Source: Dehalococcoidales bacterium
GTDB lineage: Bacteria > Chloroflexota > Dehalococcoidia > Dehalococcoidales > RBG-16-60-22
Direction: 5' to 3'
Assembly (NCBI GenBank): GCA_034430495.1
Contig: DAOUEG010000048.1
Location: 709 to 64,708, forward strand
Length of the DNA stretch: 64,000 nucleotides
Below are positions 15,206-64,000 of this stretch, piece after piece (position 1 is the stretch's first letter; every line of letters starts with the position of its first letter). The notes beneath the pieces are model-generated. The model made no database searches, was not told the DNA's origin, and worked only from the letters and a program-made list of their open reading frames with translations. A program made the position numbers and the translations under genes.

Positions 15206-15301
15206 CGCCGGCCTCCTTCCCGGTTGCCGCCGGTCAATCCAAGGCTATTGTGGCACAAAAGGAGGGGACTGTCCAGCGTATTTTGTCGCGTTTTGGTGAG
15301 G

Positions 15302-15925
15302 CTAAATAGTACCACGGATGATGGTGACGGTGCCGAAAAAGGCGCGCTTCTCCGCGACGACGGTGATGCCGGCCTCGCGGACGAGGGCGGCGAGGTCAAT
15401 AAAGGCGAAGGACGGGTAGTACTTGCTGTCGATGGTGCGGATGAAGCGGTAGGCGAACCAGCGGCGCAGCCCCCGCGGGGGGAGGTAGTAGTCCACCACG
15501 AAGACGGTGCCGCCGGGGCGGGTGACGCGGCGCATCTCCGCGAGCACCTTGGGCCGCATGTCCGGGGGCATATCATGGAGGGCGAAGGCGACGTGGGTGA
15601 CATCGAAGCTGGCGTCCTCAAAGGGGAGCGCGGCGGCATCCCCTTCCACCAAAGTGACGTTACGGTAGCGGTCCCTGGAGCGGGCGACGGCGAGCATGTC
15701 CGGGGAGAGGTCCAGGCCGGTGACGATATTGCCCCGCCGGGCCAGGGCGAACGCCTGACGGGCGGTGCCGGTAGCGACATCCAGCACCTTGACCTGCGGG
15801 CCGGGCGGCACGAGGGCGGCGACCTGTTTCTCCACGACCTTGAACGGGATGGTCACGAGGTCGTAGTAGGCGTGATGCTTCTTGAAGAACGCCTTGATGT
15901 AGGCGTAGTCGGCGGATTGGTTCAT
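15302..15925 (-). CDS. Class I SAM-dependent methyltransferase
   Basis: VLDVATGTARQAFALA (motif I), LPFEDASFDVT and RPGGTVFVVDY. ATG 15925 avoids the 41-nt overlap with the upstream gene. The longest ORF reaches 15967. Confidence 0.8.
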   Translation of the reverse strand: MNQSADYAYIKAFFKKHHAYYDLVTIPFKVVEKQVAALVPPGPQVKVLDVATGTARQAFALARRGNIVTGLDLSPDMLAVARSRDRYRNVTLVEGDAAALPFEDASFDVTHVAFALHDMPPDMRPKVLAEMRRVTRPGGTVFVVDYYLPPRGLRRWFAYRFIRTIDSKYYPSFAFIDLAALVREAGITVVAEKRAFFGTVTIIRGTI

Positions 15926-15926
15926 A

Positions 15927-16400
15927 TTAGAAGGTACGGCCGGGTTGGTCGTCGTTTTCTCCGCCAATCTTGCGCCATCGCTCCCGGTTAGGAAACGTCA
16001 GGACGAGAGCGGCCATAGAAACGAGGATAAAGGGCAGTGAAATATACACTTCCGCACCGAGGACGGCCAGAATGAGGCCGTAGATGCCTATCGCTTCAAA
16101 AAGTGAGGCGCGCACTATAATAAAGTTCAGGGCGTCCGCCGACGCATTACCGGAGCCACGTATGAACCTGGTGAGGACCGATGGAAAGCCGGCACCGAGC
16201 AGTAAGGTAATGACAGCGAGGACCGCCAACGCTATTTCGATGAGCTGAAAGTCAGGGTCGGCGGGGTCAAAGATGCCGCCTATCACGTTCGGGACGAGGA
16301 GGTAGGCAATAAGGAGGTACATCAACCCGGCCGTCAGCATGAGGGAATACATGATCTGGGCATTCTTGAGAGTACGTCCCGATCCAAACAGCTCCAGCAT
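15927..16400 (-). CDS. Hypothetical integral membrane protein
   Basis: Contains four predicted hydrophobic helices. No recognisable family. Packed tightly in a co-directional gene string. Confidence 0.5.
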   Translation of the reverse strand: MLELFGSGRTLKNAQIMYSLMLTAGLMYLLIAYLLVPNVIGGIFDPADPDFQLIEIALAVLAVITLLLGAGFPSVLTRFIRGSGNASADALNFIIVRASLFEAIGIYGLILAVLGAEVYISLPFILVSMAALVLTFPNRERWRKIGGENDDQPGRTF

Positions 16401-16430
16401 TCGAGTTTTCCTCCTCCGCGATAACGATTG

Positions 16431-17003
16431 CTACCTGAGGATGATATCGTCCAGCTTGCGCTTGGGCACGTGGTGGACGCCGTTGGCATCCCGCCAGTAC
16501 TTGATGCTGCCGTCCGGGGGGAGCTCCTCCAGCACGACCTCTTCCTTGGGGCGGCCGAGGGAGAGGACGAGCAGGATCTCATACCGGGCGGGGATATCCA
16601 GCGCGGCCCGCAGCTCCGGCTGCTTGATGCTGCCGTGCATGCAGCCGCCGAGGCCCCGCTCCCGGGCGCCGAGGAAGATGCTCTGGGCGGCGATGCCGTG
16701 GTCGCAGAACCAGTTTTTGGCTATCTCGGTATCCGCCAGCACGACGATGTAGGCGGCGGGGCGCTCGCCCTCCGCGGGGCCGGGCCAGTCCGTCAAATAG
16801 CCGGCCCAGCCGAGGGTAGCGAAGACCCTGGCGCGCTCGGCGGCGTCCGTGACGGTGAGGTACTTGAGGGACTGGAGGTTGGCGCCGGACGGGGAGAGGC
16901 GGGCGAGGTCAATGAGCTCGCGGAGGGTCTCTTTGGAGACGGGGACGTCCTCGTAGAAGCGGCGGCAGGTGCGGTTGGATTTGACGAGGTCTCGTACTGA
17001 CAT
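16431..17003 (-). CDS. Nitroreductase-family flavoprotein
   Basis: RTCRRFYEDVPVSKETLRELIDLARLSPSGANLQ is the canonical nitroreductase N-terminal motif. Confidence 0.8.
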   Translation of the reverse strand: MSVRDLVKSNRTCRRFYEDVPVSKETLRELIDLARLSPSGANLQSLKYLTVTDAAERARVFATLGWAGYLTDWPGPAEGERPAAYIVVLADTEIAKNWFCDHGIAAQSIFLGARERGLGGCMHGSIKQPELRAALDIPARYEILLVLSLGRPKEEVVLEELPPDGSIKYWRDANGVHHVPKRKLDDIILR

Positions 17004-17013
17004 GGGTGACTCC

Positions 17014-18342
17014 TTACTCTTTGTGGCGTACCACCTCGAACCGGTAGAGGTTGACGGGCTCGTCCGGGTGGATGCCGGCCTTCTGGCGGCAGATAGCGAT
17101 TTGCTGCTCCACGGTGTCCACGCCCTCGAGGTCCGGCAGGAGCAGGCCGCGCCGCCAGCCGGACTCCACGATGAGCCCGTACCGCTTGGGGTCGAGGGTG
17201 CTCATGTCATCCACGGGCACCGGGCTGGTGAGGACGTCCACGGTGTACTCCAGGTCGGCCAGCTCCTCCTCGCGGACGGGATGGAAGCGGGGGTCCTGGG
17301 TGGCGGAGCTGATGGCGTTGGTGATGATTTCCCAGGCGATGTCCGGCTGCTGGGGCTCGAAGGTGCCGATGCAGCCTCGCAGCGAGCCGTCCTTCTTGTG
17401 GATGGAGACGAAGACGCCGGCCTTTTCCTGGAGTTCCGGGGTGGGGTCTTCCGGGGCGTCGAGGCGGCGGCCCTCCTTGACGAGCGTCTCCACGGTGGCT
17501 CGGGCGAGGCCCACGAGGGGGTCGGTGGGGGACTTCGGGATAATGACGCCGGCGTAGCCGACGACGGCATCGCGGTCGCCGGTGGCGTCGCCGCTCGTGG
17601 CGTACTTGACCGGCTCCCCGGCGGCGGCGCCGAGCTCTTTCGCCACGGTAATGAGGACCATGGCCGGGCCGAAGGCGCACATGGTGATGTGGAGCTCGCG
17701 GTAGCGGCGGTCCAGCTCCGCATCGTCGAGGGCGACGATGGCCTCGACGGCCTTATAGTCCTTCTCCCGGGCGGTGGCGTCCGGCTCGTAGTGGGTCATG
17801 TCCCCGCTGGCCAGGACCAGGGCCTCGCGGCCGGTCTCGCTGAGGGTGCGGGCGATGTCCCGCCCGATTTCCCGGTAGAGGGCCGCCGGGGCGAGGGACA
17901 GGATGATGGGGACGATTTTCACGTCCGGCTTGAGGTACTGGAGGAAGGGGAGCTGTATCTCCACGGCGTGCTCCTCGCGGTGGGCGGCGGTGTCCGCCTC
18001 CAGGTAGCCGGAGTGGTTGATGAGCTCGAAGGCGAGGGCCTCGTCCACCTCCACGTCCCCGAGGGGGGTACGCCAGGTGCCTTCCGGCATGACGGAAAAC
18101 GGCTTGCCCCGGCCGCTGTGGGACGGCCCGATGATGATGACGGTATCCGTGAGGCGGACGCGGGAGATGGTGGCCCCGGCCACGGCGCCGGAGTAGATGT
18201 AGCCGGCGTGCGGCACGAGGAGCCCGATGGCCTCCGTCCGGGCCGCGTCCGGGTCCACCAGGGCGGCGACCATCTTCTTCAGTTCCGAGGCGGTGCCGGG
18301 ATAGAACGACCCGGCGGCGTACGGCTGACGTACCATTTTCAT
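17014..18342 (-). CDS. Fusion of AmmeMemoRadiSam system protein B (Memo-like) and protein A (AMMECR1 domain)
   Basis: The N-terminal half has the Memo motifs AAGSFYPG and [14 protein letters not shown]. The C-terminal half has AMMECR1 motifs [19 protein letters not shown] and RRGLLLPD. Confidence 0.85.
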
Positions 18343-54989: not shown

Positions 54990-55757
54990 CTATACCGGGC
55001 GCAGCGTCCCGGCGAACACCTGCCAGGCGAGGGCGGACTTGGCGACCAGGCTGAGCAAGATGTACGCCTTCTCGCCGTAGAGGTAGTCCCGCCACTTCCC
55101 CACCTTCCGGTACTGGAACACCATGTTCAGCGCAAAGCTGAAGAAGAAGACGAACAGGGTGGGCAGGATGACGTACACGAAGGTCGGGACGCCGCCGCCC
55201 GCCTGCGCCAGCGAGCCGAAGAAGTAGATGGCGATGGCCACCCACGGGGCGACGCCGGCCAGGCAGCCGACCCAGAAGGAGAGCCAGTGCGTCTTCTCCG
55301 TGGTCTGGTTGTGGACCTCCATGATGAGCCCGCAGAGGTTCATGACGGCGGTGAGGACGAAGGCCATCAGCAGCGCGCCGAGGTCGTAGACGCCGCAGAG
55401 CATCCCGATGAGCACGATCATCAGCGAGGCGCTGAGGGCGTACTCGTACCAGCGGGCCTTGTTGATGCCCTTGCTCAGGTTGGCGGTGTACCACCGGTAG
55501 GCCGGCCCGGCCACGGTGAAGTGGGCCAGCGCGGAGAGGAAGAGGAAGACGGCCACCATGATGCCGAGCGGCAGCTCCACGAGGGCGTCCGTGGACGGCC
55601 AGAGCTTGCCGAGCGACTGGTTCAGGGTGAGGAATGACGTGGTGACGGGCAGGGTGAAATTGTTGCTGAGGACGATGATGACCACGCCCTGGGCCAGGTG
55701 CAGGCAGCCCATGACGAGGTTGTAGGTGCGCAGCCGGCGGAATGGGGTCTCGCTCAT
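54990..55757 (-). CDS. Heliorhodopsin (255 aa, 7-TM retinal protein family)
   Basis: RRLRTYNLVMGCLHLAQ (TM1 His), LSALAHF (TM2 His), RWYEYALSASLMIVLI (TM3 Glu counterion position), FWVGCLAGVAPW, and GEKAYILLSLVAKSALAWQVFAGTL (TM7 Schiff-base Lys). These blocks are colinear with heliorhodopsin 48C12 as recalled. ATG 55757 has a GGAGG SD. Confidence 0.85.
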   Translation of the reverse strand: MSETPFRRLRTYNLVMGCLHLAQGVVIIVLSNNFTLPVTTSFLTLNQSLGKLWPSTDALVELPLGIMVAVFLFLSALAHFTVAGPAYRWYTANLSKGINKARWYEYALSASLMIVLIGMLCGVYDLGALLMAFVLTAVMNLCGLIMEVHNQTTEKTHWLSFWVGCLAGVAPWVAIAIYFFGSLAQAGGGVPTFVYVILPTLFVFFFSFALNMVFQYRKVGKWRDYLYGEKAYILLSLVAKSALAWQVFAGTLRPV

Positions 55758-56907: not shown

Positions 56908-58353
56908 TCACTCCATGACGGTCACCGGGACCGGTCCCGTCTCGGGACCGGAACCCGAGTCCAGGCCGCCATCGGGATCGCCTTCGCCGGACCTGGCCTG
57001 GCGGCGGAAGCCCCGCAGCACCGGTATGACGAGCGACGTTACGAGCAGCGTCGTTAGCAGGTCCGAGCCGGGGAAGGACAGCCAGAGCCCGTTGAGGCCG
57101 ATGAACCGCGGCACGATGAGGACGATGGGAATGAGGAAGAGCACCTGCCGGGCGACCGCCACGATGAAGGCCGGTACCGCCCGGCCGATGGCCTGGAACA
57201 CCATGAGGCCCACGTTGACGAAGCCGAGCAGCGGCATACCGAGGAACATGAACTTGGCCGCCCCGACGGCGACGCTGATGAGCTCCGTATCATTCGTGAA
57301 GACGCGTATCATGGGCGCCGGGATGAAGTAGAGGAAGAGGAACATGACGCTGCCGAGAATGGTGGAGGCCGCGAAGGCCATGACGACGACCTTCATGGCC
57401 AGGCCGAACCGCCGGGCGCCGTAGTTGTAGCCGAGGATGGGCTGGGCCCCCTGGGCGAGCACGAGCGACGGCATGATGGCGAACATGAAGATGCGCTGGA
57501 TGATCCCGAAGGCGGACAGGGCGTAGTCGCCGCCATAGTGCACGACGGAGTTGATGAGGATCATCGCGGACAGACTGCCGCTGACGGTCTGCACGAAGGC
57601 GCCGACGCCGATGGAGAACATCGGGCGGATGATGGCCATTTTCAGCCTCAGGTTGGCCAGGCGCACCTTGAGGAAGCTGTTGCCGTTGAAGTAGTAGAGC
57701 GCCAGGAAGACGAGCGACACCGCCTGGGAGATGAAGGTGGCCCAGGCCGCGCCCTTGACGCCGTAGCCGAGCCAGGCGATGAAGGTGGCATCAAAGATGA
57801 TGTTGGTCACGGCGCCGAGTATCATGGCCACCATGCCGACCCGGGCGTTGCCCTCGGCGCGGGTGTAGTTGAGCAGCGCTAGGGACAGTATCTGGAACGG
57901 CAGCGCGTACATGACGATGCTCAGGTAGTCCCGGGCGAAGGGCAGTACCTCGTCCGTGGCGCCGATGAGCCGCAGCCAGTAGTTGACGAGCGGCAGCACG
58001 AGCGCCATGACGATTACGGAGATGAGAATGCCCAGGCTCAGCCCGTTGCCGAGCGCCTTCTCCGCGTCCTCCGACCGGCCGGCGCCGATGTAGCGCGAGA
58101 TGAGGGACATGCCGCCGATGCCGACCATCTGGCCCATGCCCATGCCGAGCATCTGGATGGGGAAGACGATGGAGAGACCGGCGATGCCGAGCGGCCCCAC
58201 GTTGTGCCCGACGAAGATGGTGTTCATGACGTTGTACATCGTCTGGACGAACATGCCGAGGAAGACCGGCATGGAGAGATGGAAGAGGAGCCGGCCGATG
58301 CGGTCCGTATCCAGGGCGTGATGCAGGCTGGTGGGGGAGGCCGTCTGTTTCAT
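56908..58353 (-). CDS. MATE-family efflux transporter
   Basis: 12-TM protein whose N-terminus has the typical MATE start: RIGRLLFHLSMPVFLGMFVQTMYNVMNTIFVGH. Confidence 0.85.
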   Translation of the reverse strand: MKQTASPTSLHHALDTDRIGRLLFHLSMPVFLGMFVQTMYNVMNTIFVGHNVGPLGIAGLSIVFPIQMLGMGMGQMVGIGGMSLISRYIGAGRSEDAEKALGNGLSLGILISVIVMALVLPLVNYWLRLIGATDEVLPFARDYLSIVMYALPFQILSLALLNYTRAEGNARVGMVAMILGAVTNIIFDATFIAWLGYGVKGAAWATFISQAVSLVFLALYYFNGNSFLKVRLANLRLKMAIIRPMFSIGVGAFVQTVSGSLSAMILINSVVHYGGDYALSAFGIIQRIFMFAIMPSLVLAQGAQPILGYNYGARRFGLAMKVVVMAFAASTILGSVMFLFLYFIPAPMIRVFTNDTELISVAVGAAKFMFLGMPLLGFVNVGLMVFQAIGRAVPAFIVAVARQVLFLIPIVLIVPRFIGLNGLWLSFPGSDLLTTLLVTSLVIPVLRGFRRQARSGEGDPDGGLDSGSGPETGPVPVTVME

Positions 58354-58356
58354 GGC

Positions 58357-59790
58357 TCAGTCCGCGGCGGGGCTCTCCTCCGGGTGAAGTAGCGGCTGCC
58401 CGTGGAGCGCCGGGGCGCTCCCGCCGGGCCCGCCCGCCTGGGACCGGAAGTACCGGATGACGGGGACGATGAGGATGATGACCAAGGTGAAGGTAAAGGT
58501 ATCCGATACGGGGAAGGTGAACCAGACCCCGTTGAGGCCCAGGAAGTGGGCCAGGATGAAGACGGCCGGGATGAGGAAGAGGACGGGCCGGGCGATGGCG
58601 GCCACGAAGGCCCGCCGGGCCTTGCCGATGGCTTGGAATATCATCGTCCCGATGCCGATGGGGGCGATGAGAGGCAGGGAGAGGAGCATGCGGCGGGAAG
58701 CGTCCGCCCCCAGGTTGACGAGCTCGACGTCATCACTGAATATCCGCATGATGGCGTCCGGGATGAAGTACACCACCAGGAAGCCCGCGATGCTGAGCGC
58801 GACGCCCAGGGCGAGCGCCTGGTTCATGGATTTCAGCAGCAGGCCGAACCGCTTGGCGCCGTAGTTGAAGCCGATGATGGGCTGGGCGCCCTGGCTGAGG
58901 ACCATGGCCGGCATGTTGGCGAACATCATGATGCGCTGGACGATGCCGAAGGCGCCGACGGCGAAATCGCCGCCGTGGCGCTCCACCATGTTGATGACGA
59001 TCATCACCGAGAGACTGCCGGCGAACATCTGGGCGAAGGCCCCGAGGCCGATGCCGACCATCTCCTTCATGATCCCGAAGTCCGGCCGCAGGTTGACGCG
59101 GCGGACTTTCAGGTAGCTGTTGCCGTTCCAGTAGTAGAGGGCGAGATAGCCGGTGGCCACCAGCTGGGCCAGCAGCACGGCCAGGCCGGCACCCTCGACG
59201 CCCCAGCCGAGCCAGACGATGAAGACGAAGCTGAACAGGATGCTGAGGAGCGCCCCGGAGACCATGGCCACCATGCCGACGCGGGCGTTGCCCTCGGCGC
59301 GGGCGAAGTTCAGCAGCGAGGTGGACACCACCTGGAACAGGATGGCCACGCCGACGTAAAGCATGTAGCCGTGGGCGTAGGGCAAGACCTCCTCCGAGGC
59401 GCCGATGAGCCGCAGCCAGAAATCGAGGAACGGCAGCAGCGCCAGCATCATGACGCCGCTCAGGATGAGCGACAGGGTGATGCCGTTGCCGAGGGACTTC
59501 TCCGCCCGCTCGTTCTCGCGGGCGCCGAGCATCCGGGAGATGAGCGACATGCCGCCGATGCCGGACAGGCTGCCGAGGCCGAAGCCCATCATCTGGAGGG
59601 GGAAGGCGACGGACAGGCCGGCGATACCCAGCGGCCCCACATCCCGGCCGATGAAAATCGTGCTGATGATGTTGTACATGGACTGCACGAACATGCCCAT
59701 GAAGACCGGTCCGGACAGCTTGAAAAGGAGCTTGCCGACGGCCTCGGTATCGAGGATATTCTTATAGTCTTGCCCGGCGCGTTGCTGCAT
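58357..59790 (-). CDS. MATE-family efflux transporter (tandem paralog)
   Basis: AVGKLLFKLSGPVFMGMFVQSMYNIISTIFIGR. It is colinear with the downstream paralog. Confidence 0.85.
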   Translation of the reverse strand: MQQRAGQDYKNILDTEAVGKLLFKLSGPVFMGMFVQSMYNIISTIFIGRDVGPLGIAGLSVAFPLQMMGFGLGSLSGIGGMSLISRMLGARENERAEKSLGNGITLSLILSGVMMLALLPFLDFWLRLIGASEEVLPYAHGYMLYVGVAILFQVVSTSLLNFARAEGNARVGMVAMVSGALLSILFSFVFIVWLGWGVEGAGLAVLLAQLVATGYLALYYWNGNSYLKVRRVNLRPDFGIMKEMVGIGLGAFAQMFAGSLSVMIVINMVERHGGDFAVGAFGIVQRIMMFANMPAMVLSQGAQPIIGFNYGAKRFGLLLKSMNQALALGVALSIAGFLVVYFIPDAIMRIFSDDVELVNLGADASRRMLLSLPLIAPIGIGTMIFQAIGKARRAFVAAIARPVLFLIPAVFILAHFLGLNGVWFTFPVSDTFTFTLVIILIVPVIRYFRSQAGGPGGSAPALHGQPLLHPEESPAAD

Positions 59791-59807: not shown

Positions 59808-60266
59808 TCAGGCTTCCAGCTTGAAGAGGGCGTCCCGCACGTTCCGGAGCGCCCGGCAGAGGGACGCCAGCTCATCCGGTTCCAGGGAGGACATGTTCTC
59901 CCGGACGGCGTTGACGATGGTGTCTTCCTGCTCCCGGACGAAGCGGCGGCCGGCCCTGGTGAGGCCGATGTTGAGGGTGCGGCGGTCGGCGGTGTCCGGC
60001 TCACGCTCGACGAGGCCGAGCCCCACGAGGTGGTCAATGATGTGGGTCATCTGGGCCTTGGCGAGGACGAGCTGCTCCCCGATGCGGGCGACGTGAAGGG
60101 TGCCTTCCTGGTCGAGGAGGCGCAGCACCTCGTAGTGGGTGAACTTGATGTCCACGTCCAGGTCCGCCAGGGTGGTCTTGATAATCTTCTTGCGGATGAT
60201 GCGGAAGACGAGCGGCGGCAGGGAAAGCAGGTCCGCCGCGACCTTTTCAATGGTTTCCTCGGTCAT
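59808..60266 (-). CDS. MarR-family transcriptional regulator
   Basis: FTHYEVLRLLDQEGTLHVARIGEQLVLAKAQMTHIIDHLVGLGLVEREPDTADRRTLNIGLT is a winged HTH. ATG 60266 has a GGAGG SD 9 nt upstream. The longest ORF extends to 60353. Confidence 0.8.
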   Translation of the reverse strand: MTEETIEKVAADLLSLPPLVFRIIRKKIIKTTLADLDVDIKFTHYEVLRLLDQEGTLHVARIGEQLVLAKAQMTHIIDHLVGLGLVEREPDTADRRTLNIGLTRAGRRFVREQEDTIVNAVRENMSSLEPDELASLCRALRNVRDALFKLEA

Positions 60267-60438: not shown

Positions 60439-60467
60439 TTGACAGTCCCCCGGCAAAACAATAAGAT
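60439..60467 (+). promoter_or_regulatory. Candidate promoter of the SDR-thiolase cluster
   Basis: TTGACA (60439-60444), 17 nt, TAAGAT (60462-60467). Confidence 0.45.
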
Positions 60468-60514: not shown

Positions 60515-61279
60515 ATGGCAGGCATGTTCCAGGGAAAAGTTGCGCTCGTGACGGGGGCCGGGCTCGGGCTGGGGCGCTGCTCGGCGCAGGCGTTCGCCCG
60601 CGAGGGTGCCAGGGTGGTGGTGGCGGATATTGACGAGAAGCTCGGCAGCGAGACCGTGGCGCTCATCAAGAAGGACGGCGGCGAGGCCGCCTTCGTCAAG
60701 GTGGACGTCAGCGACGACGCCCAGATGAAGGCGCTCATCGAGCAGACCGTCGCCCTCTACGGCGGGCTCAACTTCGCCCACAACAACGTCGGCATCGAGG
60801 AACTGCCGGAGCAGATTACCGACGCTACCGCGGAGAAATTCGACAACCTCGTGGCCGTTGACCTCAAGGGCGTCTGGCTCGGGCTGAAGTACGAGATAGC
60901 CTGGATGGAAAAGCACGGCGGCGGGAGCATCGTCAACACCTCGTCCATCGCCGGGCTCATCGGGGCACCGGGGCAGATTATCTACTCCGGCTGCAAGTGG
61001 GGCGTCAACGGCATGACCAAGGCGGCCGCCGGGATGTACGGCAAGGCCGGCATCCGCATCAACGCCGTCTGCCCGGCCGGCATGAAGGGGACCGGGTTCT
61101 ACAACCGGATGCTGGACTTCAATCCCGGCATGGCCCAGGCCGTGGTGGACATGGTGCCGCTGGGGCGGGACGCGGACCCGGCCGAGGTGGCCGAGGCGGT
61201 CGTCTGGCTGTGCTCGGACAAGGCCGCCTACGTCACCGGTATCCTCATGCCGGTGGACGGCGGCTTCACCATCACCTAG
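60515..61279 (+). CDS. Short-chain dehydrogenase/reductase (SDR)
   Basis: ALVTGAGLGLGR (TGxxxGxG), NNVG, and S...YSGCKWG (YxxxK). Confidence 0.85.
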   Translation: MAGMFQGKVALVTGAGLGLGRCSAQAFAREGARVVVADIDEKLGSETVALIKKDGGEAAFVKVDVSDDAQMKALIEQTVALYGGLNFAHNNVGIEELPEQITDATAEKFDNLVAVDLKGVWLGLKYEIAWMEKHGGGSIVNTSSIAGLIGAPGQIIYSGCKWGVNGMTKAAAGMYGKAGIRINAVCPAGMKGTGFYNRMLDFNPGMAQAVVDMVPLGRDADPAEVAEAVVWLCSDKAAYVTGILMPVDGGFTIT

Positions 61280-61400
61280 CTTTTCAAGCGCCCCCGAACC
61301 GAATCGGAGGCGTCGTAGTTTTACGCCCGTGTCACCCTTCGACCGGCCCCGAGCGCCGGCCTTGCGGACGTGACCGGACGGCGAGAAAGGAAACCGGGAT

Positions 61401-62846
61401 ATGGTCGGGATTACAGCTCTGGGGACGTACCTCCCCATCTTCAGATTGAGCCGGGACGCGCTGGCCGCCATGTGGTCCGGGCGGGGCGGCGCCGGTACGA
61501 AAGCCGTGGCCGGCTACGACGAGGATACCCTCACCATGGCCGTGGCGGCGACGATAGAGTGTCTCAACCGGGCTGGCACCGGGGCGGACAGCCTCACCCT
61601 GGCGACCACGACGGCCCCCTACCGCGAGAAGCAGGCGGCGGCCATGGTAGCCGCGGCGGCCGACCTCGGCGAGGGGTGCCAGACGGCGGACGTCACCAAC
61701 TCCCTGCGGGCGGCCGGACAGGCGCTCAAAGCGGCCTGCGACGCCGTGACCGCCGGTTCCGCCAAGACGGCCCTCGTGGCGGCGAGCGACTGCCGGCCCG
61801 CCGCGGCCAAGGGAACGCTGGAAGCGGCCTTCGGGGACGGCGCGGCGGCGGTGATGGTGGGCTCCGAGAACGTCATCGCCGAGATAAACGGCTGGTACTC
61901 CGTCAACAACGATTTCACCGACTACTGGCGGCTGGCCGAGGAGGCCTACGTGCGCACCACCGAGGGGCGGTTCATTGACGAGAACGGCTACCTGCCGGCG
62001 GTACAGGCCGCGGTGACGGGCCTGCTGGAGCGGCAGAAACTCGCACCGGCGGATGTCACCACCTGCGTCTACTACGCCTCAGACGCCCGCCAGCACGCCT
62101 TGCTGGCCCGGCGAATGGAACTGGACAAGGGACAGGTGCAGGACTGTCTCTACAACGATATAGGCAACACCGGCACGCCGGCGGCGCTCCTCATGCTGGC
62201 GGCGGCGCTCGAAAAGGCCAAGCCCGGCGACCGCATCGTCGCGGCTTTCTACGGGGACGGCTGCGACGCCTTCCTGCTGACCGTCACGGACGCTATCAAG
62301 GGATTTCAGAAGAAACCGGCGGTCTCGGACAAACTGGCCGGCTCCCAGGCGATAGACTATGGGCGCTACGCCGTCTGGAAGGGGCTGGTGCCGCTCGAGG
62401 CGAGCACCCTGCCGGACCGTTCGCCGCTCTCCCTGCCGAACCGCTGGCGGGAGCGCCAGGTCATCACGGCGCTTTACGGCAAGAGGTGCACCAACTGCGG
62501 CACGCCGCAGCTCGCCCAGATTGGCCAGAACATCAGGGTCTGCGTGCAGTGTCAGGCGAGGGACCAATTCGAGCCGTACAAGTTCTCGGACAAGAAGGCG
62601 ACGCTCTTCACCTACGCCATTGACCAGCTCATGCCGACGCAGAACCCGCCCGGCGTCAACGGCGTCATTGACTTCGTCGGCGGGGGGCGGCTCGTCTGCG
62701 AGCTGACGGACTGCGACATTGACAGGCTCGCCGTCGGCATGACGGTGGAGATGACCTACCGCCGCATGTTCGTGAGCCGCGGCATCATCAACTACTTCTG
62801 GAAGGCCAAGCCGGCGACGGACGAACCGGAAGGGGGGAGGTCGTAA
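61401..62846 (+). CDS. Fusion of an HMG-CoA-synthase-like thiolase-fold domain (catalytic residues apparently substituted) with a DUF35 OB-fold/zinc-ribbon domain
   Basis: The N-terminal ~340 aa are colinear with archaeal HMGCS (GITALGTYLP..., GNTGTPAALL, FYGDGCDAF). The C-terminal region has a CTNCG...CVQCQ rubredoxin-like knuckle plus an OB segment, as in DUF35 proteins. Confidence 0.7.
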   Translation: MVGITALGTYLPIFRLSRDALAAMWSGRGGAGTKAVAGYDEDTLTMAVAATIECLNRAGTGADSLTLATTTAPYREKQAAAMVAAAADLGEGCQTADVTNSLRAAGQALKAACDAVTAGSAKTALVAASDCRPAAAKGTLEAAFGDGAAAVMVGSENVIAEINGWYSVNNDFTDYWRLAEEAYVRTTEGRFIDENGYLPAVQAAVTGLLERQKLAPADVTTCVYYASDARQHALLARRMELDKGQVQDCLYNDIGNTGTPAALLMLAAALEKAKPGDRIVAAFYGDGCDAFLLTVTDAIKGFQKKPAVSDKLAGSQAIDYGRYAVWKGLVPLEASTLPDRSPLSLPNRWRERQVITALYGKRCTNCGTPQLAQIGQNIRVCVQCQARDQFEPYKFSDKKATLFTYAIDQLMPTQNPPGVNGVIDFVGGGRLVCELTDCDIDRLAVGMTVEMTYRRMFVSRGIINYFWKAKPATDEPEGGRS

Positions 62847-62847
62847 T

Positions 62848-64000
62848 ATGGACGGTATCAAGAATAAAGTCGCCATCGTCGGGATGGGGTGCACCAAGTT
62901 CGGGGAGCGCTGGGACAAGGGCGTCGAAGACCTCATCGTCGAGGCGGCCTACGAGGCGTTCGAGGACGCCGGCGTCGAGCCGAAGGACCTCCAGGCGGCC
63001 TGGATAGGCACCGTGTTCTCCGGCCTCAGCGCCATCACCCTCTCGCCGCTCCAGCTGCCCTACATCCCGATGACGCGCGTCGAGAATATGTGCGCCACCG
63101 GCTCCGAGGCGCTGCGGGCGGCCACCTTCGCGGTGGCGTCCGGGGCGGTGGACGTGGCACTGGCGGTGGGCGTGGAGAAGCTCAAGGACTCCGGCACGAC
63201 GGGAGTCAAGGGCCCGGCGGTGGTCGGGGACAACGGCGACGGCTCCTCCGGCATCGGGCCGGGGTACAGCGCGCCGGCCTCCTTCGCTTACCTGGGGACG
63301 CGTTACTTCCACGACTACGGCATCCCGCCCGAAGAGGGCAAGCGGATGCTCGCCAAAATTGCCGTCAAGAACCATCACAACGGCAGTTTGAACCCCAAGG
63401 CGCACTTCCAGAACGAGCTGACCATCGAGCAGGTGGTCAACGCGCCCATCGTGGCCTGGCCGCTCGGCCTCTACGACTGCTGCGGCGTCTCCGACGGGGC
63501 CTCGGTGGCCGTCGTCACCCGGGCGGACATGGCCAGGAGCTTCCGCGACGACCCCATCTACATCAAGAGCATGCAGATATGCGCCGGGGCGCGACAGGGG
63601 GCCATGCGGCAGGACTACGACTTCGTCCACATGGACGAGAACGTCATCGGCTCCGGGCGCGCCTACGAGGAAGCGGGCGTCAAGGACCCGCGGAAAGAAA
63701 TTTCCATTGCCGAGGTGCACGACTGCTTCTCCGTCCACGAGATGATCGTCTACGAGGACCTGCGCTTCACCAAGCGGGGAGGGGCCCGGGAGGACATCAA
63801 CGCCGGGACGTTCGAGCTCGATGGCGAGATGCCCATCAATACGGATGGCGGGCTGAAATGCTTCGGGCACCCGCTCGGGGCGAGCGGTCTGCGCATGATG
63901 TACGAGGTCTACAAGCAGCTCCAGGGCAAGGCGGGGCCGCGGCAGGTCAAGAACCCGCGGCTCGGGCTGACCCACAACCTCGGCGGCAACGCCGGGACGG
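62848..64000 (+). CDS. Thiolase-domain protein (SCP-x / archaeal acetoacetyl-CoA thiolase-like); 3' end beyond the window
   Basis: Own translation: MDGIKNKVAIVGMGCTKFGERWDKGVEDLIVEAAYEAFEDAG...RVENMCATGSEALR (nucleophilic Cys). ATG 62848 lies 1 nt after the upstream stop. The ORF runs off the window, so it is absent from the track. Confidence 0.85.
   Translation, partial: MDGIKNKVAIVGMGCTKFGERWDKGVEDLIVEAAYEAFEDAGVEPKDLQAAWIGTVFSGLSAITLSPLQLPYIPMTRVENMCATGSEALRAATFAVASGAVDVALAVGVEKLKDSGTTGVKGPAVVGDNGDGSSGIGPGYSAPASFAYLGTRYFHDYGIPPEEGKRMLAKIAVKNHHNGSLNPKAHFQNELTIEQVVNAPIVAWPLGLYDCCGVSDGASVAVVTRADMARSFRDDPIYIKSMQICAGARQGAMRQDYDFVHMDENVIGSGRAYEEAGVKDPRKEISIAEVHDCFSVHEMIVYEDLRFTKRGGAREDINAGTFELDGEMPINTDGGLKCFGHPLGASGLRMMYEVYKQLQGKAGPRQVKNPRLGLTHNLGGNAGT

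Follow-up and report, generated by a model that had tools for sequence, protein, structure and literature searches.

A non-catalytic HMG-CoA synthase-like::DUF35 fusion and its SCP2-type thiolase partner as a probable thiolytic module in a Dehalococcoidales operon

The last genes in a 64,000-nt stretch of DNA from a Dehalococcoidales bacterium (contig DAOUEG010000048.1 of assembly GCA_034430495.1; the whole stretch is called the window below) raise the question of what a protein built like 3-hydroxy-3-methylglutaryl-CoA (HMG-CoA) synthase does once its catalytic residues are gone. The list of open reading frames (ORFs) of the window places three genes on the same strand here: a short-chain dehydrogenase (SDR), a 481-aa ORF fusing an HMG-CoA synthase (HMGS)-like domain to a DUF35 domain, and a thiolase ORF. 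We think it probable that the fusion protein is a non-catalytic scaffold for a degradative thiolase that cleaves a 3-oxoacyl-CoA, the reaction with which a short catabolic module of the operon would end. The pair would most likely be the carbon–carbon cleavage step of a beta-oxidation-like breakdown pathway. The parts of the fusion gene are as follows.

61401..62846, forward strand: fusion protein of 481 aa, a non-catalytic HMGS-like thiolase-fold domain plus a DUF35 zinc-ribbon/OB domain (Pfam, PDB, MAFFT, AlphaFold2)
61404..62390, forward strand: HMGS-like domain, aa 2-330, aligned to residues 4-347 of 6esq_I
61608..61610, forward strand: Thr70 codon, at HMGS catalytic Glu82; Thr in 119/120 close homologues and 120/150 representatives
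61704..61706, forward strand: Leu102 codon, at HMGS nucleophile Cys114; Leu in 119/120 close homologues and 102/150 representatives
62073..62075, forward strand: Tyr225 codon, at HMGS His238; Tyr in 115/120 close homologues, with Y, P, A and S among distant representatives
62166..62168, forward strand: Asn256 codon, at HMGS Asn270, retained; Asn in 119/120 close homologues and 56/150 representatives
62442..62819, forward strand: DUF35 domain, aa 348-473 (PF01796, E 1.8e-9)
62487-62552, forward strand: codons of the Cys4 zinc ribbon C363, C366, C381 and C384; all four invariant in 35 diverse members

Pfam recognised ACP_syn_III, ACP_syn_III_C and OB_ChsH2_C (DUF35) in the 481-aa protein. In a PDB search, residues 2-330 matched archaeal HMGS 6esq_I (E 1.9e-33), the PhlA-type subunits 9skh_A (2.7e-37) and 5m3k_A (5e-32), and MucA 9vbo_A (1.3e-16). 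According to two papers (PMC12960953; PMC6392133), the catalytic tetrad of archaeal HMGS is Glu82, Cys114, His238 and Asn270. We located these columns in an HMMER pairwise alignment and in a 275-sequence MAFFT alignment, with M. thermolithotrophicus HMGS as the reference and the 6esq_I numbering recovered from the printed alignment. The two alignments agree that Glu82 is replaced by Thr70, Cys114 by Leu102 and His238 by Tyr225, while Asn270 is kept as Asn256. Three of the four tetrad residues, including the nucleophile and the general base, are thus gone from the window protein. Across the 270 relatives tallied (120 close homologues and 150 representatives of 50%-identity clusters), no Glu was counted in the Thr70 column and no Cys in the Leu102 column, and no His was among the residues tallied at Tyr225 in the MAFFT alignment. 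The string SLR stands where HMGS has ACK in most members (window 61704-61709). HMGS equivalog models scored below their cut-offs (NF003274/TIGR00748: 225.5 bits against 244; 162.4 against 353.35).

The second half of the protein is equally recognisable. Residues 348-473 match the DUF35 subunit 6esq_E (PDB search, E 1.2e-10), and PF01796 scored 37.8 bits against a cut-off of 27.1. DUF35 proteins consist of an OB fold preceded by a Cys4 rubredoxin-like zinc ribbon (PMC2954200), a description that the window domain fits. AlphaFold2 predicted one confident two-domain body (pLDDT 92, pTM 0.93), whose best structural matches were the HMGS-like subunits of all three solved tripartite complexes (target-normalised TM: 6esq_I HMGS, 0.91; PhlA-like 9skh, 0.90; PhlA 5mg5, 0.90; MucA 9vbt, 0.87). 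The 120 closest database proteins are all fusions of ~470-490 aa with 64-90% identity, mostly from Dehalococcoidales/Chloroflexi metagenome-assembled genomes. Full-length fusions of about 445-500 aa also make up most of the best 150 representatives, the remainder being shorter fragments or longer multi-domain proteins. The fusion is neither a frameshift nor an assembly artefact.

These results bear on what the first-pass annotation had read by eye from the DNA, namely a protein colinear with HMG-CoA synthase, with TTTAPY, NSLRAA and YYASD in place of the three catalytic motifs, and joined to DUF35. The match of residues 2-330 to 6esq_I bears out the colinearity, and the multiple alignment with HMGS that it had proposed upholds all three substitutions and adds the retained Asn. 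The alignments show no equivalent of the catalytic Glu, Cys or His in the window protein. The fusion itself is supported by the Pfam and PDB domain matches, by the single two-domain model and by an architecture conserved in relatives; the possibility of a frameshift or assembly error, which had been named as fatal to the idea, was not upheld, since the same fusion occurs in 120/120 closest proteins and on closed plasmids. Missing from that annotation were PhlA and MucA, the solved proteins to which the dead domain is most closely related.

If the HMGS-like domain is inactive, the chemistry would come from its neighbour. The thiolase gene starts 1 nt past the TAA stop of the fusion ORF and is cut by the window end.

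62848..64000, forward strand: SCP2-type thiolase, 384 of 396 aa inside the window (NCBIfam NF004810, Pfam, PDB)
63091-63093, forward strand: Cys82 in ENMCATGS, the catalytic Cys
63718-63729, forward strand: HDCF with His291 (VHDCF), motif intact
63868-63870, forward strand: GHP with His341 (FGHPLGASG), motif intact

Contig L001 comes from a near-identical strain (99.65% identity over 12.6 kb with one gap, blastn against the window), and genes past the window end were therefore read from it, including the full-length thiolase of 396 aa. Pfam recognised Thiolase_N and Thiolase_C_1 (the latter at 6e-36) in the thiolase ORF. Even as a 384-aa fragment, the protein passed NF004810 (SCP2-type / PRK06157) with 548.2 bits against a cut-off of 403. 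The NCBIfam equivalog for M. thermolithotrophicus ACAT was not reached. The closest solved relative is archaeal ACAT (6esq_A, 2.4e-64), followed by SCP2-type thiolases (~1e-52), BbsB (3.2e-47) and PhlC (~1e-23). The intact ENMCATG nucleophile motif noticed in the first pass is thus confirmed, with HDCF and GHP in addition. The Cys is kept by 77/77 partner thiolases of related loci, and HDCF and GHP by 72/72 of those long enough to include this region. The "CxS" motif reads CxT in the window thiolase and in 74/77 family thiolases.

What would such a pair be cleaving? We called genes in 81 loci by conservation-weighted ORF selection, clustered them and checked the labels by Pfam and NCBIfam. A thiolase lies directly 3' of the fusion in 76/81 loci, and intergenic gaps are often <40 nt; in the other five, the contig ends first, a spurious short ORF intervenes (L009) or no thiolase was recognised (L065). 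Neighbour counts take in only loci long enough to tell, among 32 Dehalococcoidales-type loci. The conserved gene order in these is fusion, thiolase (27/27), family III CoA-transferase (24/25), an MFE-2-type (3R)-hydroxyacyl-CoA dehydrogenase of ~312 aa that we call SDR2 (21/22), and an epimerase-like VOC protein (17/22). The best PDB matches of SDR2 are (3R)-hydroxyacyl-CoA dehydrogenase/MFE-2 structures (2et6_A, 3e-82; 1zbq, 3oml and 1gz6, ~1e-52). The CoA-transferase matches formyl-CoA transferase, succinate-hydroxymethylglutarate CoA-transferase (SUGCT), YfdE and BbsF, with E-values of 1e-46 to 4e-49 for true CoA-transferases compared with 1e-29 for racemases. The VOC protein scored 100.9 bits with the methylmalonyl-CoA epimerase model, just below its cut-off of 114.95.

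The upstream SDR of the window (SDR1), by comparison, has an SDR1-type counterpart directly 5' of the fusion in 13/31 Dehalococcoidales-type loci. The conserved dehydrogenase partner is the downstream SDR2, just past the window end, and not SDR1; an SDR of the SDR2 type is also the one fused to the scaffold in some relatives. The earlier proposal that the complex acts with the upstream SDR consequently holds in part: a dehydrogenase does accompany the complex, but the upstream gene is only a variable neighbour. The downstream genes anticipated at that stage, as read on L001, likewise include a CoA-transferase, of family III, but no hydratase within the operon. The broader proposal, a derived thiolase complex with a dead HMGS scaffold engaged in beta-oxidation-like chemistry, is supported by the residues, by the biochemistry of a Pseudomonas fluorescens complex discussed below, and by the context in 81 loci and three plasmids.

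From these genes a short pathway can be proposed. The family III CoA-transferase would activate the free acid, SDR2 would yield the 3-oxoacyl-CoA by its (3R)-hydroxyacyl-CoA dehydrogenase activity, and the methylmalonyl-CoA-epimerase-like VOC protein may act on a stereocentre at the alpha-carbon. Within the scaffold–thiolase complex, the thiolase would then cleave the 3-oxoacyl-CoA with CoA, using Cys82, His291 and His341. The DUF35 module would tether the scaffold to the thiolase; in the solved three-subunit complexes, DUF35 bridges the HMGS-like and thiolase dimers. Because there is no acyl-CoA dehydrogenase or hydratase in the operon or the window, entry is expected at the level of a hydroxy- or oxo-acid. 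As substrate we consider a hydroxy- or oxo-acid probable, one that is branched or non-standard in some other way.

The architecture is not new, and the novelty implied for it in the first pass is too high. In January 2026, Liao et al. (Nat Commun; PMC12960953) described and assayed a P. fluorescens ACAT/HMGS-DUF35 complex of this fused, dead type, with a tetrad-less HMGS and an ACAT carrying Cys, HDxF and GHx. Since the architecture is the same, the window protein belongs to a published kind, as a new member from a new lineage. The P. fluorescens complex made neither acetoacetyl-CoA nor HMG-CoA from acetyl-CoA and cleaved acetoacetyl-CoA thiolytically, and an H294Y change in the HDxF motif of its thiolase abolished that cleavage (PMC12960953). 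By analogy with this equivalent complex, the window pair may be expected to perform thiolysis without condensation. In both, an HMGS-like domain lies N-terminal to a fused DUF35, the catalytic residues are lost, the thiolase has Cys/HDxF/GHx, and there are no polyketide synthase (PKS) or nonribosomal peptide synthetase (NRPS) neighbours. The window protein differs in keeping the Asn of the tetrad, its host belongs to an uncultured anaerobic Dehalococcoidales lineage, and the pair sits in a conserved operon with the CoA-transferase, the MFE-2-type SDR and the epimerase-like VOC gene.

That last difference matters for interpretation. The same authors mined 1,030 bacterial HMGS/ACAT/DUF35 loci, 1,001 of them "orphan" loci without secondary-metabolism neighbours, the large class into which the fused type falls, and regarded such systems as evolutionary intermediates (PMC12960953). 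The conserved Dehalococcoidales operon argues for a defined catabolic role instead, and the gene contexts as a whole argue against un-recruited evolutionary intermediates, the sole published interpretation. The enzymology proposed here is conventional thiolysis, and the new element is the genomic context: the conserved Dehalococcoidales operon, the contexts in other phyla and the SDR/SCP2 fusions. The main scientific value is that orphan complexes are placed in defined catabolic operons.

Other known systems share some of these parts. The archaeal thiolase/HMGS/DUF35 complex has the same three modules, as the best matches of the thiolase, the HMGS-like domain and DUF35 to its subunits illustrate. 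Its HMGS, however, is active (Glu82, Cys114, His238, Asn270), is a separate subunit and serves biosynthesis by channelling acetoacetyl-CoA into HMG-CoA, whereas the window module is inactive and fused. BbsAB, the benzoylsuccinyl-CoA thiolase of anaerobic toluene degradation, comprises an SCP2-type thiolase with HDxF that needs a DUF35 partner, and the bbs operon has the same logic of family III CoA-transferase, SDR and thiolase; BbsB, BbsF and BbsD are all recognisable PDB matches of the operon proteins. Unlike the bbs operon, the window operon has no acyl-CoA dehydrogenase or hydratase. To our knowledge, BbsAB has no HMGS-like subunit. The window thiolase was rejected as a BbsAB orthologue, with 170.1 bits against a cut-off of 750 for the BbsB equivalog NF053628. 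Peroxisomal branched-chain beta-oxidation uses an MFE-2 dehydrogenase, an SCPx thiolase and an alpha-methylacyl-CoA racemase. SDR2 is of MFE-2 type, the window thiolase is of SCP2/SCPx type, the CoA-transferase and the racemase have the family III fold in common, and an SCP2 domain occurs in some relatives; this is an analogy of parts only, and the operon has no hydratase domain.

Could the same genes run in the opposite direction? In a biosynthetic reverse-beta-oxidation complex, the thiolase would condense acyl-CoAs, the scaffold would recruit the SDR as a 3-ketoacyl-CoA reductase, and the CoA-transferase would release the acid. All three reactions are reversible, scaffold::SDR fusions exist, and S. 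acidocaldarius has a synthase complex in which an SDR ketoacyl-CoA reductase and a MaoC dehydratase are bound to a ketothiolase/DUF35 pair (bioRxiv 10.1101/2024.07.05.601840). That archaeal fatty-acid synthase complex (KT/DUF35/ACR/HCD) is a thiolase/DUF35 hub binding an SDR for 3-oxo-/3-hydroxyacyl-CoA, which parallels the SDR fusions and neighbours seen here, but it is biosynthetic, has no HMGS-like module and includes the dehydratase. We regard this direction as quite unlikely for the window operon, which holds no dehydratase or enoyl reductase; the fused P. fluorescens complex did not condense acetyl-CoA when assayed (PMC12960953), and relatives adjoin acyl-CoA dehydrogenases, CoA ligases, transporters and MarR/TetR/LysR/sigma-54 regulators, which are typical of catabolic clusters. 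A different question is whether the HMGS-like domain has been neo-functionalised, its conserved Thr70/Leu102/Arg103 pocket either holding a bulky substrate by its acyl or CoA moiety for the adjacent thiolase site or catalysing some other reaction. In the diverse set, Thr70 and Arg103 reach at least 90% conservation, Leu102 is invariant in the closer set, and the solved complexes keep a continuous chamber/shared CoA site between HMGS-like and thiolase subunits despite lost catalytic residues. We consider this unlikely as well: no replacement nucleophile or general base is present, the His238 and Asn270 positions vary widely in distant members, and in the PhlACB structure only PhlC residues contact the substrate, PhlA and PhlB being non-catalytic and needed to assemble the dodecamer (PMC6392133).

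In sequence and in structure alike, the dead domain is matched best by PhlACB (PpATase, CsATase) and MucABC (SmaATase), and their tripartite architecture resembles that of the window pair, so a Friedel-Crafts C-acyltransferase that (de)acetylates a small phenolic or tetramic-acid acceptor was also weighed. PhlA and MucA lack the E-C-H-N tetrad (PMC12960953), share the loss of Glu, Cys and His, and have a structural role; the Glu and Cys positions hold Cys and Gly in PhlA and Cys and Glu in MucA, compared with Thr and Leu in the window protein. The thiolase subunits PhlC and MucB, which acylate small-molecule acceptors, have lost the HDxF histidine, whereas the window thiolase keeps it as His291 of HDCF and is ~40 orders of magnitude (E-value) closer to archaeal ACAT than to PhlC. 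PhlACB and MucABC are made of three separate subunits and belong to antibiotic biosynthetic clusters, phl-like with type III PKS or muc-like with NRPS-PKS. No PKS or NRPS genes occur in 10 kb on either side of the window pair (gene list of L001), where the neighbours are CoA-ester enzymes, MarR and MATE pumps. Such an acyltransferase is therefore a very improbable reading. Least credible of all is a genuine HMG-CoA synthase of the mevalonate pathway, or a fusion created by frameshift or misassembly. JGI pipelines do name many members "hydroxymethylglutaryl-CoA synthase", and the protein is colinear with archaeal HMGS. The Glu82, Cys114 and His238 equivalents are nonetheless gone, the equivalog scores are below cut-off, the archaeal complex no longer formed HMG-CoA once its tetrad was mutated (PMC12960953), and fusions of the same length turn up across hundreds of independent assemblies as well as on closed plasmids from cultured strains. 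Both an active HMGS and an assembly artefact are excluded at the sequence level.

The case for a catabolic scaffold–thiolase pair is built on what was observed here, namely the lost residues, the thiolase motifs left intact, the fold, a conserved fusion, gene neighbourhoods and domain fusions, but several points weigh against it. From those observations we infer the physical formation of the complex, the catabolic direction, the order of the steps and the class of substrate, and the entry substrate is a guess. The likeness to the P. fluorescens complex is drawn from its published description and not from its sequence. The operon does not encode a full beta-oxidation cycle, having no acyl-CoA dehydrogenase or hydratase, and its VOC, PrpD-family and enolase-superfamily (MR_MLE) neighbours are without an assigned role. 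Finally, the dead domain is well kept: Thr70 and Arg103 are conserved at that level in the 35-member diverse alignment A1, where mean column identity is 48%, Leu102, invariant in the closer-relative alignment A2, is also the commonest residue in the 150 representatives, and the tetrad residue Asn256 is retained. The lost active-site positions (window 61608-61610 and 61704-61709) thus appear to be under purifying selection and not drifting. The conservation of Thr70, Arg103 and Leu102 could mean a binding or even a catalytic role and not pure scaffolding.

A bolder version of the scaffold idea, which we offer tentatively and think doubtful, is that dead-HMGS::DUF35 is the selected hub of a bacterial beta-oxidation "metabolon" resembling peroxisomal MFE-2 plus SCPx. 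No evolutionary leftover, it would dock both the thiolase and an MFE-2-type dehydrogenase, to which it is in fact fused in some species, and the former active site (Thr70/Leu102/Arg103) would lie in an enlarged acyl/CoA tunnel. In Dehalococcoidales, this would amount to an unrecognised CoA-transferase-initiated route for a branched/dicarboxylic hydroxy-acid.

The catabolic reading can be compared with the contexts of the family elsewhere. An exhaustive search of 50%-identity representatives gave 3,003 clusters at E<=1e-3, of which 520 reached E<=1e-30. When species-representative genomes were scanned, relatives proved to be encoded in 374 stretches, with hosts that include Dehalococcoidales, Acidobacteriota, Syntrophorhabdales, Desulfatiglandales, Syntrophaceae, Nitrospirales and Peptococcaceae. 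The scan query was the closer 12-sequence alignment, and for this reason the 80 loci are biased towards relatives of >=42% identity. Members of ten distant representative clusters add little taxonomically beyond Dehalococcoidia and one Falsibacillus. A tblastn search against plasmids yielded 35 fused homologues of full length at 31-35% identity, those of Proteobacteria included; they lie on megaplasmids from cultured strains of Sphingobium, Rhodococcus, Novosphingobium, Variovorax, Azoarcus and Mycobacterium. The three plasmid homologues that we inspected are without the Glu, Cys and His, and each adjoins an HDCF/GHP thiolase. One fused homologue (44% identity) lies on a 3.7-kb contig binned as a Thermoplasmata archaeon (L074, DAOVMN010000284.1); either the contig was mis-binned or an archaeon carries a dead fusion of bacterial type. 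Of the papers listed in a literature search on DUF35 in Dehalococcoidia, Syntrophorhabdus, Desulfatiglans or Desulfotomaculum, none contained DUF35.

Different lineages appear to feed a 3-oxoacyl-CoA to the pair by different routes. In Acidobacteriota loci, an MFS transporter, 3-oxoacid CoA-transferase A and B and two VOC genes stand beside it; Peptococcaceae loci have two MaoC hot-dog subunits, an SDR, an acyl-CoA dehydrogenase and a sigma-54 activator. Deltaproteobacteria/Syntrophorhabdales loci have AMP-forming CoA ligases, often with two-gene biotin carboxylase and PEP-utilising-enzyme genes. On three annotated megaplasmids, full beta-oxidation sets surround the pair: ACAD-SDR-fusion-ACAT-ECH-ECH-Ltp-DUF35-P450 in Novosphingobium ES2-1, with a FadD3-family ligase nearby; fusion-ACAT-thiolase-SDR-crotonase in Rhodococcus DK17, with a CaiB/BaiF transferase and an ACAD nearby; and SDR-MaoC-fusion-ACAT-ACAD-CoA-transferase in Variovorax, whose SDR is 40% identical to SDR2. 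Catabolic operons for non-standard acids seem to use the pair as a standard module for thiolysis, both in strict anaerobes and in aerobic pollutant/steroid degraders.

Longer proteins also occur in the family. Thiolase-superfamily, SDR, SCP2 and hot-dog domains had been noted as fusion partners of DUF35 by 2010 (PMC2954200), and we found Rosetta-stone fusions of the forms HMGS-like::DUF35::SDR::SCP2 (P0212, 911 aa), HMGS-like::DUF35::SDR (P0242, 800 aa) and HMGS-like::DUF35 followed by two SCP2 domains (P0188, 722 aa). The SDR fused in P0212 is 46% identical to SDR2 and 33% identical to SDR1. The SDR-SCP2 combination mirrors the domain logic of eukaryotic MFE-2. Another protein, P0192 (723 aa), joins an HMGS-like domain to ATP-grasp and Molydop_binding domains without DUF35 and looks like a chimera or a miscall.

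The practical value of these results lies mainly in flagging a widespread misannotation. Most members carry the JGI/IMG name "hydroxymethylglutaryl-CoA synthase" (the NCBI name is "OB-fold domain-containing protein"), a label that, judged by the residues, is functionally wrong for members without the catalytic Glu, Cys and His. Because the catalytic Glu and Cys were seen in 0/270 aligned relatives, it would be wrong to infer from these genes that Dehalococcoidia, Acidobacteriota or syntrophic Deltaproteobacteria have a mevalonate pathway.

The remaining features of the locus lie upstream of the fusion.

60515..61279, forward strand: SDR1, classical short-chain dehydrogenase of 254 aa, the variable first gene (Pfam adh_short_C2, 2.2e-59)
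60439..60467, forward strand: sigma-70-like promoter match TTGACA-17-TAAGAT, 5' of the first SDR, between MarR and SDR; a consensus match only
59808..60266, reverse strand: MarR-family regulator of 152 aa, divergent from the operon (Pfam MarR and MarR_2; NCBIfam MarR-type matches)

SDR1 scored 302 bits with NCBIfam PRK06172, under the cut-off of 336. The promoter search matched 10/12 positions and returned 2 sites compared with 0.3 expected in shuffles. A MarR gene is present upstream in 15/25 Dehalococcoidales-type loci. Two MATE efflux genes lie in tandem directly downstream of the MarR gene in the window (56908-58353 and 58357-59790, both on the reverse strand), and the MatE-MatE-MarR block recurs 5' of the fusion operon in many Dehalococcoidales loci (e.g., L005, L009, L014, L015, L025 and L029), which suggests that efflux may be co-regulated with the catabolic operon. 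The rest of the 64-kb window holds no further beta-oxidation genes and no paralogues of the fusion/thiolase pair.

In about half of the Dehalococcoidales loci, SDR1 is replaced by a glutaredoxin-like gene (92 aa) and a ferredoxin-thioredoxin-reductase catalytic-subunit::rubredoxin gene (170 aa). Fifteen loci other than those with SDR1 have this pair 5' of the fusion; it makes up the two genes upstream of the fusion in, for example, L003, L005, L009, L011, L014, L015, L022, L025, L027 and L029, and has no apparent link to thiolase chemistry. On the other side of the operon, divergent PrpD-family (16/19) and MR_MLE (14/19) genes are frequent neighbours in Dehalococcoidales-type loci. On L001, the PrpD/MmgE-family and muconate-cycloisomerase-like enolase-superfamily genes occupy 15238-17811, past the window end and divergent. 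In the PDB, the PrpD-family protein best matches iminodisuccinate epimerase and cis-aconitate decarboxylase. The two genes perhaps make the operon's substrate.

The Deltaproteobacteria/Syntrophorhabdales loci have a gene set of their own. The two genes just 5' of the fusion encode a carboxyltransferase (HMGL-like, PYC_OADA and biotinyl domains; 584 aa) and a biotin carboxylase (495 aa) in L033, L035, L036, L038, L039, L041, L047, L050, L053, L054 and L058. Often found with these two are genes for a PPDK_N protein, a PEP-utilizer protein, UPF0261, DUF2284 and an AMP-forming CoA ligase. The set looks like one for ATP-/biotin-dependent carboxylation of a ketone or similar compound to a 3-oxoacid, followed by CoA ligation and thiolysis. 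We know of no described pathway with this combination of carboxylase, ligase and fusion-thiolase genes.

The Novosphingobium cluster comes from plasmid p3 of the oestrogen-degrading Novosphingobium sp. ES2-1 (L082, 133596-152966); a literature search on the strain gave nothing on the cluster. Besides the fusion, it holds a separate pair of an Ltp-type "lipid-transfer protein" and a free DUF35, the P450, the FadD3-family ligase, MaoC pairs and two VOC genes. With the scaffold/thiolase and the Ltp/DUF35 pair side by side, two different DUF35-dependent thiolase-fold systems thus occur in one steroid-type cluster.

Farther from the operon, a heliorhodopsin gene lies at 54990-55757 on the reverse strand of the window, ~5 kb upstream (Pfam PF18761 on the identical contig gene). 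It adjoins a DegV/FakA-like gene and a gene for a conserved 334-aa protein without a family match.

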